Sequence record: LR595867.1
Source: Escherichia virus Mu_3F6
Direction: 5' to 3' (one strand)
DNA length: 37,126 bases
Positions 3,455 through 9,455 of the stretch are shown piece after piece (position 1 is the stretch's first letter; the number at the start of each line of letters is the position of its first letter). The notes under the pieces are model-generated. The model was not told the origin of the DNA. It was given only the letters and a program-made list of their open reading frames with translations, and did not search any database. A program made the position numbers and the translations under genes.

Positions 3455-4393
3455 ATGAATATTTCCGATATTCGCGCAGGACTGCGCACGCTTGTAGAAA
3501 ATGAAGAAACCACCTTTAAACAAATTGCTCTTGAGAGCGGACTTTCTACCGGAACTATCAGTAGTTTTATCAATGATAAGTACAACGGGGATAACGAGCG
3601 TGTTTCACAAATGCTGCAACGCTGGCTGGAAAAATATCATGCAGTTGCAGAACTACCTGAACCGCCCCGCTTTGTGGAAACGCAGACGGTAAAACAAATC
3701 TGGACAAGTATGCGTTTTGCCAGCCTGACTGAAAGTATTGCTGTTGTATGTGGCAATCCTGGTGTGGGCAAAACCGAAGCGGCCCGTGAATATCGCCGCA
3801 CCAATAACAATGTCTGGATGATCACCATTACGCCATCCTGTGCCAGCGTTCTGGAATGTCTTACTGAACTGGCGTTTGAGCTGGGAATGAATGACGCACC
3901 ACGCCGTAAAGGGCCGCTCTCCCGCGCCCTGCGACGTCGCCTTGAAGGTACACAGGGGCTGGTTATCATCGACGAAGCTGATCATCTTGGTGCCGAAGTT
4001 CTGGAAGAACTCCGCCTGTTACAGGAATCAACCCGTATTGGCCTTGTGCTGATGGGAAATCACCGGGTTTATTCAAATATGACGGGGGGTAACAGAACGG
4101 TTGAATTTGCCCGTCTGTTTTCCCGTATTGCAAAGCGCACTGCAATTAATAAAACCAAAAAAGCCGATGTAAAAGCTATTGCGGATGCCTGGCAGATTAA
4201 CGGCGAAAAAGAACTGGAGTTATTACAGCAGATTGCGCAGAAACCAGGTGCGCTTCGCATTCTGAATCATTCACTTCGCCTTGCCGCCATGACGGCTCAC
4301 GGTAAAGGTGAGCGTGTTAACGAAGATTATCTGCGTCAGGCTTTCCGTGAATTAGACCTGGACGTTGATATTTCAACGCTGCTGCGTAATTAA
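3455..4393 (+). CDS. B: transposition ATPase / target DNA activator B (MuB, 312 aa)
   Basis: Walker A GNPGVGKT and Walker B VIIDEADH; size and position as MuB. Confidence 0.95.
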   Translation: MNISDIRAGLRTLVENEETTFKQIALESGLSTGTISSFINDKYNGDNERVSQMLQRWLEKYHAVAELPEPPRFVETQTVKQIWTSMRFASLTESIAVVCGNPGVGKTEAAREYRRTNNNVWMITITPSCASVLECLTELAFELGMNDAPRRKGPLSRALRRRLEGTQGLVIIDEADHLGAEVLEELRLLQESTRIGLVLMGNHRVYSNMTGGNRTVEFARLFSRIAKRTAINKTKKADVKAIADAWQINGEKELELLQQIAQKPGALRILNHSLRLAAMTAHGKGERVNEDYLRQAFRELDLDVDISTLLRN

Positions 4394-7063: not shown

Positions 7064-7593
7064 TGTTTTTTAAAACGTCAAATTCCGCAGCACTGCTGGC
7101 ATGGGACCAGTTTATGGCGGACTGCCTGAAACTACGCGAAGAAGCCCGCCATCTTGATAAGGTTCTGGGCTGTGGTTGCCGGTCAGTATTCAGCACAGGT
7201 ATTGGTGGGCGTCATTTTCATGGCGTGAATTTTCCGGGGAATGAGCGCCCCTTCTCGCGGGAGCTGTGGACCGTACAACGGCCCGCATCAGGTAACAGTT
7301 GCAGGCCCAGAACTTCACGGATACCTGCTCATCTCAGGGAGCAGGCAAGAGAGCTGGCGAAAATATGGCAGGAGAATATTCCGGTCACTTACGCCCGCAC
7401 AGACGCTCTTTTACCCGCACTGGGACTGGATTTCAGCGCAACAATATTCGGGCCGCTCCAGTGGTTCCGTGTTGGTGATGTGATTTACGTCATGACGGGG
7501 ATGACACCCGCACAAGGCCGCATGACTGAAATCCTTTCTGACGAATTTATCCGGGCGCAAAAACAGGCGGAGGTAAACAATGGAAAACAATGA
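7063..7593 (+). CDS. early-region hypothetical protein (176 aa; start moved to ATG 7063)
   Basis: GGAGG RBS 7 nt before ATG at 7063; the track start at 7024 overlaps the upstream gene. Confidence 0.5.
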   Translation: MFFKTSNSAALLAWDQFMADCLKLREEARHLDKVLGCGCRSVFSTGIGGRHFHGVNFPGNERPFSRELWTVQRPASGNSCRPRTSRIPAHLREQARELAKIWQENIPVTYARTDALLPALGLDFSATIFGPLQWFRVGDVIYVMTGMTPAQGRMTEILSDEFIRAQKQAEVNNGKQ

Positions 7594-7772
7594 AAAACAA
7601 TGAAACATCGTATTCGTGGCTGGGGAAATTTACCACGGTGAAACAGGAATGCCCGACCTGCGGTAATGAATCTCCTGAATATCTGAAAGAGTGCCCTCAT
7701 TGTGGCGGGCAGAAATGCAACCACTGCGATATGGGCGATGACACGGCGTGCATGAATTGTGAAGGTGAATAA
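7590..7772 (+). CDS. small Cys-rich protein (60 aa, zinc-ribbon-like)
   Basis: CPTCG...CPHCGG...CNHC...CMNC; start overlaps upstream stop (ATGA). Confidence 0.45.
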   Translation: MKNNETSYSWLGKFTTVKQECPTCGNESPEYLKECPHCGGQKCNHCDMGDDTACMNCEGE

Positions 7773-7773
7773 T

Positions 7774-8064
7774 ATGAATAATGAAACTAAATTTACGCCT
7801 AAAGACCTGGATGAAGAACTGGTGAAAGCTAAGATGCTTGAGCGTATGCGCGATGTTATTGAGACTGCAATCAGTAAAGGCTTTTCTGCGAGAGAGGCCC
7901 TTGAAATTATGACACGGGAAATTCATCTCATACGCGACGAAGTTTTGTTGCATAACAAAAAAGCCCACAACAATATTGTTTGTCGTGAGCTTGGCGTTGA
8001 TGATTCAGCGGTTATTCCACAGCGTCAGTATCTGTGTGCTCTGATGAGAGGTTCCCGGCATTAA
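7774..8064 (+). CDS. early-region hypothetical protein (~96 aa)
   Basis: ATG at 7774 preceded by AAGGTG; its 3' end overlaps the convergent minus-strand ORF 8012..8371. Confidence 0.45.
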   Translation: MNNETKFTPKDLDEELVKAKMLERMRDVIETAISKGFSAREALEIMTREIHLIRDEVLLHNKKAHNNIVCRELGVDDSAVIPQRQYLCALMRGSRH

Positions 8065-8371
8065 CAATATCCTGCCTTGAAGCCCAGAGCTTATTGAGCA
8101 GCAGATCAACATACTCATCGGCCTCAAAATCCAGTTCTTCGAACGTTTTTCGGTTCTTATAGCTGGCCTGTGTATTTCTGATGATGTCATAAGCATCGTG
8201 CATGTTGATAACACCGTTTTCAATCAGCTTAATCATCAGATTACCGACCAGCATAAAACCGGTTATACCAAAGAATTTATCCTGGTTATTAACAGGGGTG
8301 TCTTTCTGGTTTGTTTCGAAATCTGGGTTTTGTTCATCATCCGACACCGTATGTTGTTCTTGTTCAGCCAT
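8012..8371 (-). CDS. acidic hypothetical protein (119 aa) transcribed against the early operon; candidate acquired gene
   Basis: Leftward ORF with RBS AAGGAAA about 7 nt upstream of ATG; region visibly AT-rich; Asp/Glu-rich product. Confidence 0.5.
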   Translation of the reverse strand: MAEQEQHTVSDDEQNPDFETNQKDTPVNNQDKFFGITGFMLVGNLMIKLIENGVINMHDAYDIIRNTQASYKNRKTFEELDFEADEYVDLLLNKLWASRQDIVNAGNLSSEHTDTDAVE

Positions 8372-8440
8372 AATATTTCCTTTTATGTTATTACTGAATA
8401 TGGCGGTGTTGCAGCACCGCCTCTTTCCGGAGGTACGATC

Positions 8441-8992
8441 ATGAGTCGCACATCCCTGATTAAATTAATCCATGTCGCCCGTCGGGAGCTACAACTCGAC
8501 GACGACACTTACCGCGCTTTTCTGATGCAGAAAACGGGCAAAATCAGTTGCCGCGAGCTTACGGTTACGCAACTGGAACAGGTGCTCGATGCCATGAAAG
8601 AACGCGGCTTTAAGAAGCTGAATAAATACCCCCGTCGCCGCTTTAAGGAACATGTCACACCCCGCGAGAAGGTGTATAAAATCTGGCAGCAGATGGCAGA
8701 AGACGGTTTTATTACCGATGGCGGTGATGTGGCGCTGGACAGATATGTTCAACGCCTGACCGCGAAACGCAACGGCGGACAGGGTGTTTCCACACTGGCG
8801 TGGTGTCATGGCGACACGCTGCTGACAGTCCTCGAAACACTCAAACAGTGGCACATCCGCTGTATTCGTGAAGCCTTTTCCCGTCACGGGCTTCCATTGC
8901 CGGTCAGTCCGTCCGGTCGTGAACTGCGCGGCTATGATGCCATGACGGCGGCTTATGCCCATGCCAGAAAGACACGGAGGATGGCACAATGA
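8441..8992 (+). CDS. gemA: GemA-like early protein (183 aa)
   Basis: GGAGG RBS before ATG at 8441; directly precedes mor as in Mu. The upstream part of the track ORF 8198..8992 is rejected as an extension. Confidence 0.7.
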   Translation: MSRTSLIKLIHVARRELQLDDDTYRAFLMQKTGKISCRELTVTQLEQVLDAMKERGFKKLNKYPRRRFKEHVTPREKVYKIWQQMAEDGFITDGGDVALDRYVQRLTAKRNGGQGVSTLAWCHGDTLLTVLETLKQWHIRCIREAFSRHGLPLPVSPSGRELRGYDAMTAAYAHARKTRRMAQ

Positions 8993-9378
8993 CGGAAGAT
9001 TTATTTGGTGATTTGCAGGATGACACCATCCTGGCACATCTTGACAATCCCGCAGAGGATACGTCACGCTTTCCGGCACTGCTGGCGGAGCTGAACGATT
9101 TACTACGCGGGGAATTGTCCCGACTGGGTGTTGATCCTGCCCATTCACTGGAGATTGTTGTGGCTATCTGTAAGCATCTGGGCGGCGGTCAGGTCTACAT
9201 TCCACGCGGTCAGGTTCTGGACTCGCTGATTCGGGATTTGCGTATCTGGAATGATTTTAACGGTCGCAACGTCAGCGAACTGACCACCCGTTATGGTGTC
9301 ACTTTCAATACGGTTTACAAGGCCATTCGCCGGATGCGACGGCTGAAATACCGCCAGTACCAGCCCTCACTTCTGTAA
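8989..9378 (+). CDS. mor: Mor, middle operon regulator (129 aa)
   Basis: Recognised Mu Mor; clear paralog of C in this window (shared ...YIP.G...L...F NGRN..EL...Y... core). Confidence 0.9.
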   Translation: MTEDLFGDLQDDTILAHLDNPAEDTSRFPALLAELNDLLRGELSRLGVDPAHSLEIVVAICKHLGGGQVYIPRGQVLDSLIRDLRIWNDFNGRNVSELTTRYGVTFNTVYKAIRRMRRLKYRQYQPSLL

Positions 9379-9383
9379 ACAGT

Positions 9384-9408
9384 AAAGCCGGTTAATCCGG
9401 CTTTTTTT
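9384..9408 (+). terminator. rho-independent terminator at end of early operon
   Basis: Stem AGCCGG / CCGGCT with loop TTAAT followed by a run of 7 T, 6 nt after the mor stop. Confidence 0.8.
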
Positions 9409-9455
9409 ACGTCCTCAATATCCTGTGATGAATAACCGTACCGGGGGAAATCATC

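Follow-up and report, generated by a model that had tools for sequence, protein, structure and literature searches.

Evidence for a conserved leftward gene, convergent with gene 14, in the rightward early region of Mu-like phages

In the textbook phages Mu and D108, the early region is usually depicted as a single rightward operon. Does this region also harbour a gene on the opposite strand? The question is raised by an open reading frame (ORF) that lies on the minus strand, between gene 14 and gemA, in the DNA of Escherichia virus Mu_3F6 (sequence record LR595867.1); the whole 37,126-nucleotide (nt) stretch of this DNA that was analysed is referred to below as the window. A preliminary description, made from the letters of the window alone, had presented the ORF as a leftward gene for a strongly acidic protein embedded in the rightward early operon, and had added, as speculation, that such a protein might be a DNA mimic or an anti-restriction factor. 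Our analysis upheld the former proposal and spoke against the latter. Its membership of a protein family, frame-specific selection and a terminator of its own mark the ORF as a genuine protein-coding gene, and we are highly confident that 8012..8371 is both a real gene and a member of that family. The features concerned are listed here.

8012..8371, minus strand: leftward gene (D108 allele) of 119 amino acids (aa) with an ATG start, identified as an ORF and by its translation
8376..8382, minus strand: Shine–Dalgarno sequence AAGGAAA, read directly from the sequence
7951..7992, minus strand: intrinsic terminator of the leftward gene, detected by a terminator scan, with a 13-bp stem (7992..7961) followed by UUUUUUGUU
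7774..8064, plus strand: gene 14 (96 aa), convergent with the leftward gene, identified as an ORF and by the D108 annotation
8402..8428, plus strand: GC-rich hairpin (7-bp stem, 8402–8421) and the tract TCTTTCC, just before the gemA ribosome site
8441..8992, plus strand: gemA, the divergent neighbour of the leftward gene, identified by Pfam GemA (5e-31) and by the D108 and Mu annotations

The features that the preliminary description had attributed to the ORF and its surroundings were borne out. In the D108 record, the plus strand carries all of the annotated early genes, ner through mor, and only c is on the minus strand; the 119-aa ORF is present on the minus strand as claimed. The AAGGAAA sequence is 4 nt upstream of the ATG (approximately 8 nt for its GG core), in agreement with the good ribosome-binding site that had been proposed; the sequence upstream of the gene ends ...AAAAGGAAATATTATG, and a GGA or GGAG motif precedes the start codon in all 11 of the homologous loci examined. 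The encoded protein is strongly acidic, with an isoelectric point (pI) of 4.28 and 24 Asp or Glu residues vs. 9 Lys or Arg residues. The AT-rich patch in which the gene was said to lie was also recognized, the GC content being 42% over the ORF vs. 52% over the window, with a trough of 36.5% at 8200–8399. The ORF shares 53 bp with the plus-strand gene 14 at their 3′ ends (an overlap of about 50 bp had been estimated), and its ATG is separated from that of gemA by 69 nt. Within this interval, the GC-rich hairpin GGCGGTG-TTGCAG-CACCGCC was found at exactly 8402–8421, 20 nt before the gemA ATG.

A sequence comparison of the whole window with phage D108 showed 98.2% identity across 25 kb, and the identity was 97.4% at positions 7500–9000; by this measure the window is a Mu-like prophage of the D108 type. 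The match to D108 begins at window position 150, which places the D108 left end 149 nt into the window, and positions 1–149 are presumably the host flank of the prophage insertion. The leftward protein has a copy with 100% identity (tblastn) in the D108 records GQ357916 and NC_013594 (7856..8212, minus strand), and because of this identity the gene is not new to the Mu_3F6 prophage. The gene is unannotated in both records, where a 376-bp gap is left between gene 14 and gemA. In Escherichia coli JCKP02 it is called by the NCBI pipeline as a hypothetical protein (WP_021526008.1); the chromosome of this strain matches positions 7950–8450 at 100% and was the sole full carrier among 5,426 complete E. 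coli genomes. The PHROGs entry for the window protein is phrog_38610 (8e-83), and a tblastn search of 50,697 phage records with the 119-aa protein returned D108 as the only match.

Alignment of the window with Mu revealed near-identical flanks on either side of a divergent segment, which extends from approximately 7800 (about 26 nt into gene 14) to the hairpin at approximately 8400. The suggestion that a comparison with Mu and D108 might expose a substitution was therefore correct in part: approximately 7800–8400 is replaced relative to Mu, but the gene is identical to that of D108, and the replacement is not a one-off event or the gain of a foreign gene, because Mu has a distant homologue at the same slot. 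The slot in Mu is described by two entries.

AF083977 7896..8162 (3506..3772 of locus L002), minus strand: Mu leftward ORF of 88 aa, with the Shine–Dalgarno sequence GAGAGGA and a start 70 nt from the gemA ATG
AF083977 7960..8127 (3570–3737 of locus L002), plus strand: Mup15 (Mu_54), 55 aa, from the Mu reference annotation

A longer version of the Mu leftward ORF was listed as ‘F-134’ (AAA32405.1) in the 1991 Mu left-end record M64097, and the Mu-type ORF is annotated in SfMu (gp16, YP_009152202) and in Yersinia phage Tongde (QMP18943); its product corresponds to phrog_8747. A BLASTP comparison of the D108 and Mu leftward proteins was not significant, and the two are linked only via PHROG profiles and intermediate sequences: phrog_32893 was matched by both over equivalent residues, with E-values of 5e-7 for the window protein (residues 34–77) and 6e-4 for the Mu protein. 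The ORFs of Mu, SfMu and Tongde occupy the same slot as the window gene, approximately 70 nt divergent from the gemA ATG and in the same orientation, and they share with it the 3′ overlap with gene 14, the kind of Shine–Dalgarno sequence, the terminator inside gene 14 and, judging from phrog_32893 and the alignments, the three-helix core. They differ from it in that the Mu-type protein has only approximately 20% identity to the window protein, lacks the 26-aa acidic N-terminal extension, carries another C-tail and has a pI of approximately 5.3 vs. 4.3. Since Mu has a homologue at the same slot, the difference between D108 and Mu is an allelic replacement within a conserved family.

When single proteins served as queries in word-indexed homologue searches, only near-identical clusters were recovered. 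The family was surveyed through 63 viral loci anchored on GemA, in which minus-strand ORFs starting just upstream of gemA were listed. This yielded five sequence types of small leftward ORF (79–119 aa), which fell into one alignment register and started 70–74 nt from the gemA ATG. A family profile was matched by 30 of 1.84 billion representative proteins, among which the D108-type cluster scored 6.6e-28; 28 of the matches were proteins of 60–119 aa, and the other two were longer proteins with repeats of a similar helical motif. When 32 members were aligned, a shared core emerged that consists of helix 1 (xDxAGFxLAGNxLIKLVEKG), helix 2 (VIxxxEAxxII) and helix 3 (HLDNLxA). The D108 allele is an outlier in this alignment: its start codon is followed by an acidic insertion of 26 residues, and its acidic C-tail is longer. 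When a subgroup alignment was used to scan one genome per species, a single locus was detected, on a Klebsiella plasmid (tblastn, 1e-22). The weakest profile matches (P0027, P0031, P0034 and P0036) were located on short contigs with no recognisable Mu-like context, and were not used. On the strength of these alignments, the family can be described as small, fast-evolving, apparently three-helix proteins (approximately 70–90 aa) of Mu-like phage early regions. Parts of it are already known, as a RefSeq hypothetical protein, as three PHROG families and as the Mu homologue listed as a putative ORF in 1991. In the searchable literature, we found no description of a leftward gene of the Mu early region, of the family relationship across alleles, of the fixed convergent pairing with gene 14, or of the portable cassette and the terminator inside gene 14, which are considered below.

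The strand on which this segment is coding can be judged from the pattern of selection. Plus-strand frames are open here as well, namely 8202..8444 (80 aa) and 8198..8992, and the leftward ORF could be a chance product of a region whose genuine genes run rightward (such as 8202..8444, or an extended gemA beginning at 8198), after the manner of Mup15 in Mu; the Mu record does have a plus-strand gene of 55 aa at the equivalent place, and the Mu plus frame is still open in one diverged relative. However, a comparison of the window with the Klebsiella homologue (51% protein identity) gave a proportion of synonymous differences (pS) of 0.81, which is saturated, and a proportion of non-synonymous differences (pN) of 0.30 in the minus frame, whereas the same comparison in the open antisense frame (plus ORF 8202..8444) gave a pS of 0.39 and a pN of 0.42, with omega, the ratio of non-synonymous to synonymous substitution rates (dN/dS), at approximately 1.1. 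Similarly, dN/dS between the Mu type and the Mu2 type was 0.38–0.41 in the minus frame and 0.59–1.1 in the plus frames. The antisense plus-strand frame, in which pS is close to pN and omega is 1.0–1.1, appears to evolve neutrally, and its translation is hydrophobic nonsense without homologues, whereas the minus frame is backed by a family, by a ribosome site and a terminator, and by a signature of purifying selection. With the plus-strand frames neutral and the minus frame constrained, the former are explained as by-products of the minus-strand gene, and we regard a chance ORF as highly improbable. Two outcomes that the preliminary description had set against the gene, namely a frame that is not conserved in related prophages and plus-strand frames that are the real genes, were thus contradicted, the one by the profile searches that place the ORF in a conserved family and the other by purifying selection that is confined to the minus frame. 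As for Mu itself, Mup15 lies entirely within the leftward 88-aa ORF, and the leftward frame has the stronger Shine–Dalgarno sequence, the family, the terminator and the lower dN/dS (0.38–0.41 vs. 0.59–0.65). Mup15/Mu_54 is probably a mis-call in which the wrong strand was annotated.

The leftward terminator begins 19 nt past the stop codon of the leftward gene, within the coding sequence of gene 14. Its fold has a calculated stability of −18.8 kcal/mol (z = −3.6), which was equalled by none of 200 shuffled sequences. In each of the 12 diverse loci compared, a homologous hairpin that ends in a U-rich tail is found 19–77 nt past the stop codon of the small gene. An alignment of the terminators of 11 loci showed that 93% of the cells were paired, as against 34–46% in slid controls, and that compensatory changes had occurred at three pairs. 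The same alignment contained 15 G·U cells, which correspond to A·C mismatches in plus-sense RNA; because these cells fail in the plus sense, the conservation points to selection on the leftward transcript. The terminator coincides with the stretch of gene 14 that encodes its most conserved motif, N-x-K-A-R-D-x-I-V-R-R-E-L-G in an alignment of gp14 from eight loci; the window gene 14 has the version N-K-K-A-H-N-N-I-V-C-R-E-L-G. Common to the gp14 homologues is the sequence I-V-R-R-E-L-G-L/V-(D/S), similar to the turn of a helix-turn-helix; gp14 itself had no family match.

The convergent arrangement with gene 14 recurs among distant relatives. Six distant loci (P0019, P0022, P0024, P0029, P0033 and the Klebsiella plasmid copy) all carry the small gene antisense in a Mu-like prophage early region, where it converges on and overlaps a gene of approximately 100 aa, which aligned with gp14 in five of the six. 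Four of these loci are divergent from GemA-Mor by 67–75 nt, and the remaining two have another upstream neighbour and retain the convergent partner. The arrangement was also found in Mu, SfMu and Tongde, and in loci L075, L076, L084, L085, L086 and L087. Across the 63 GemA-anchored loci, both genes were present in 19, gp14 alone in one (a deletion variant), the small gene alone in none and neither gene in 43. We also noted that L006 (vB_YpM_3, at approximately 1215) and L031 (approximately 137 nt upstream of gemA) have kept a Mu-type gene 14 and the hairpin embedded in it but lost the small ORF; both are natural deletion variants. Gene 14, the small gene and both hairpins form one cassette, which is swapped whole between Mu and D108 and is present or absent as a unit among the relatives.

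An alternative occupant of the slot was observed in IMG/VR. This is a leftward gene of 134–138 aa (phrog_585, with no Pfam match) that starts 31 nt from the gemA ATG and is carried by L013 (2054–2470, minus strand), L014, L015, L029, L030, L032, L033, L035, L036, L041 and L055; these loci lack the hairpin as well as gene 14 and the small gene. The presence of a different leftward gene at the same slot indicates that the position is a hot spot for alternative leftward cassettes.

The hairpin at 8402–8421 marks the right boundary of the Mu/D108 substitution in the alignment. It was kept in 10 or 11 diverse cassette loci, including two in which gemA is not the neighbour, and was absent where the unrelated leftward gene fills the slot. 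Since it travels with the small gene and is missing where the cassette is missing, the hairpin belongs to the cassette. In the variants of L047, L084 and L086, pairing is maintained through wobble pairs that are valid only in the early-operon sense, and the hairpins of L084 and L086, but not that of L047, are 2–4 kcal/mol more stable in this sense. A short pyrimidine- or U-rich tract (TCTTTCC, CTTTTTC, ATTTTTAA and similar) comes between the hairpin and the next ribosome site, and the structure falls short of the five-T criterion of the terminator scan. Located just ahead of the gemA ribosome site, the hairpin probably acts as a leaky terminator or attenuator of rightward transcription, and it fits an RNA structure in the rightward sense better than a promoter element for the leftward gene. 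The Mu record annotates a ‘semi-early promoter’ across the same interval. Two possibilities checked by eye, a sigma-54 pattern and a Mor-site-like geometry around the hairpin, were both rejected because the spacing was wrong and varied between loci.

A model of the window protein was obtained with AlphaFold2 from the 32-sequence alignment; its mean predicted local distance difference test score (pLDDT) of 67.6 is moderate and limits fold tests. The model contains helices at residues 30–51, 57–73 and 84–105, with a mean pLDDT of 88–92 in the blocks over residues 41–70 and values below 50 at residues 1–15, 17–23 and 108–119. The predicted layout comprises an acidic disordered N-tail (1–28), a three-helix core (30–105) and an acidic C-tail (106–119). 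Of the net charge of −15, −7 falls in residues 1–28, −4 in 106–119 and −4 in the 77-residue core, so that the tails, which are predicted to be disordered, hold 11 of the 15 net negative charges. Across the family, the median pI is 5.2 (range, 4.3–8.8), and some members are neutral or basic; because the relatives are only mildly acidic, strong acidity is a trait of the D108 allele rather than a property of the family. Pfam, NCBIfam, PADLOC and PDB sequence searches returned no match above threshold. A Foldseek search of PDB gave a best E-value of 4.8 and listed no DNA mimic, and neither PDB nor BFVD contained a match with E <1; the model of Mu F-134 ranked second in BFVD, without significance.

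Weak CARD, MotA and SHOCT-like matches were dismissed as noise or as a generic helical motif. The core ‘L-V-x-K-G-V-I-T-x-E-E-A-x-x-I’ does resemble the short oligomerisation hairpins of SHOCT and DUF2680 (PF22746, PF20612 and PF10925), three of the 32 members weakly match SHOCT-like families (best E-value, 0.0014), and two repeat proteins with the motif surfaced in the profile search. In contrast, each Pfam family was matched, weakly, by only two or three of the 32 members, the window protein had no match and the gathering threshold was not reached. Because these Pfam families have no defined function, the resemblance says little beyond a helical and probably oligomeric hairpin. A YmgB/AriR-like relationship was discarded because none of the 32 members matched Pfam YmgB at E-values up to 1.

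What might the gene do? The explanation that we favour overall, with moderate confidence, is that it is a real gene of the D108 allele, forms its own transcription unit and encodes an accessory protein that acts by binding to another protein. The gene points in the same direction as the repressor gene c, is bracketed by outward-facing terminators, is AT-rich and has a patchy distribution, features which together suggest transcription that is independent of the early promoter Pe and likely to occur in the lysogenic phase. The gene would be transcribed mainly while Pe is repressed in the lysogen, and rightward early transcription after induction would run against it. We consider an independent leftward transcription unit quite probable, and expression mainly from the prophage as an accessory (moron-like) function a tentative proposal. 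With no enzymatic, membrane or DNA-binding signature in the protein, protein binding seems the likeliest mode of action. The leftward protein may bind another protein via its helical core, with the acidic tails modulating the contact, and candidate partners would be gp14 (the lytic-phase product of the convergent gene), a host protein or a protein of a superinfecting phage. A functional pairing with gp14 is conceivable, though on balance doubtful.

Several points weigh against this interpretation. A dN/dS of approximately 0.4 represents moderate constraint only, and whether the gene is expressed in the lysogenic or the lytic phase is judged purely from its orientation. No functionally characterised homologue was identified and the fold searches of PDB and BFVD yielded nothing significant, so the mode of action is a guess. 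The co-occurrence with gp14 could reflect physical overlap alone, given that the terminator lies inside gene 14. The small gene is absent from 44 of the 63 GemA-anchored loci and from the isolated phages vB_YpM_3 and PhiR68_1; viable phages that do without it imply that it is dispensable for plaque formation. No conserved sigma-70 promoter for the leftward gene was detected by a consensus scan of the window or by a relaxed scan of the 200 nt upstream of the gene in 11 loci, and only about 20–30 nt are available between the hairpin and the leftward ribosome site. This lack of a promoter is where the argument for an independent transcription unit is weakest; a promoter that is weak or factor-dependent may exist.

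Among known systems, the leftward gene most resembles a small accessory gene of a temperate phage. Such genes are reportedly covered by the moron concept of Hendrix and Juhala, of which lambda bor is said to be an example. Like morons, it is one small gene that has a terminator to itself and is inserted among genes of a lytic operon, with an atypical base composition (GC content of 42% vs. 52%), and it is patchy among relatives and dispensable for plaque formation. Unlike typical sporadic morons, it has no promoter identified in the window or in the 11 loci, and it is old in the Mu-like lineage, with many diverged alleles, a fixed position and gp14 as a fixed partner.

A more elaborate version of the accessory role, which we consider improbable, is that gene 14 and the leftward gene constitute a two-gene convergent switch in Mu-like phages, Mu included. 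The leftward protein would be produced from the repressed prophage and gp14 from Pe on induction, and the two proteins, or the overlapping transcripts, would antagonise each other. The switch might serve prophage exclusion or defence with a lytic-phase antidote, or it might act as a checkpoint on read-through into gemA–mor and so on the onset of middle transcription; portability of the cassette would come from the two hairpins that flank it.

Two further accounts of the locus are minority possibilities, each of them unlikely. One holds that the product is a small dimeric DNA-binding regulator, with the 7-6-7 inverted repeat at 8402–8421 as its operator, that controls its own promoter and gemA–mor, and thereby the entry into middle transcription. 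The inverted repeat does accompany the small gene even at loci without an adjacent gemA, as a regulator and its operator would, and the ‘semi-early promoter’ of the Mu record spans the interval; moreover, the helix-G-helix core is superficially like a helix-turn-helix, and the best PDB sequence matches, none of them significant, include the MotA, Tc3 transposase, LysR and Xre helix-turn-helix proteins. Nevertheless, no helix-turn-helix family reached significance in the PDB sequence profile or Pfam searches, the proteins range from acidic to neutral, and Asp and Glu abound in the helix that would serve for recognition. The repeat, for its part, is nearly invariant across proteins with 11–40% identity to the window protein, and its variants keep a wobble pairing that works only as rightward-sense RNA. 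The other account makes the leftward RNA, or convergent transcription as such, the functional element, which would exert antisense control of gene 14 and of gemA–mor read-through, the protein being incidental. The convergence on gene 14 with its 53-bp overlap, the terminator inside gene 14, which makes approximately 100 nt of the transcript antisense to gene 14 mRNA, and the hairpins on both sides of the unit are all compatible with such a role. It does not, however, account for an amino-acid motif that is kept across DNA that can no longer be aligned, for saturated synonymous and low non-synonymous change in the minus frame only, or for the Shine–Dalgarno sequence in 11 of 11 loci. These three observations point to selection on the protein, to which an effect at the RNA level may be added.

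T7 Ocr and ArdA are DNA-mimic anti-restriction proteins, and the idea that the leftward gene encodes a protein of this kind, or another anti-defence protein that inhibits a host restriction or defence enzyme, probably early in infection, fared less well still. The window protein is, like Ocr and ArdA, small, acidic and phage-encoded; its net charge of −15 over 119 aa and pI of 4.28, its origin in an early region, the variable locus and its fast evolution would all suit the idea. It has no sequence or fold similarity to these proteins, however, and neither Foldseek, within the limits set by the mean pLDDT of the model, nor Pfam or PADLOC connected it with a solved DNA mimic or a known family. 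Rather than lying on a rigid surface, its charge is mostly in the disordered tails, with just −4 in the folded core, and its relatives are not strongly acidic, several being neutral or basic. The orientation is also wrong for immediate-early expression: with the gene running opposite to the early operon, there would be no expression from Pe at the time when anti-restriction is needed. We therefore judge a DNA-mimic or anti-restriction function to be very unlikely, and retain the view of an accessory protein that acts by protein binding.

Two neighbouring features were noted in the early region. Gene 13 (7590–7772, plus strand) encodes a 60-aa product with CxxC...CxxC...CxxC motifs and weak matches to the DnaJ CXXCXGXG domain and to a rubredoxin-like zinc ribbon; it is listed as hypothetical in D108 and Mu, and is probably a small zinc-binding protein. 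Downstream of mor, the early-operon terminator (9386–9410, plus strand; AAGCCGGTTAATCCGGCTTTTTTT) falls in the interval equivalent to that of the Mor-dependent middle promoter in the Mu record. An overlap of a terminator hairpin with a promoter region thus occurs twice, here and at the hairpin before gemA.

These results place a conserved opposite-strand gene, with its own ribosome site and terminator, in the Mu/D108 early region, at a position where the D108 reference annotation has a gap. The protein is still hypothetical and the immediate impact is limited, and the finding is of moderate interest for Mu biology and for the correction of reference annotations. If the gene is expressed from the prophage, it would be a candidate for a lysogeny-phase function, such as exclusion, host modulation or early-to-middle control.

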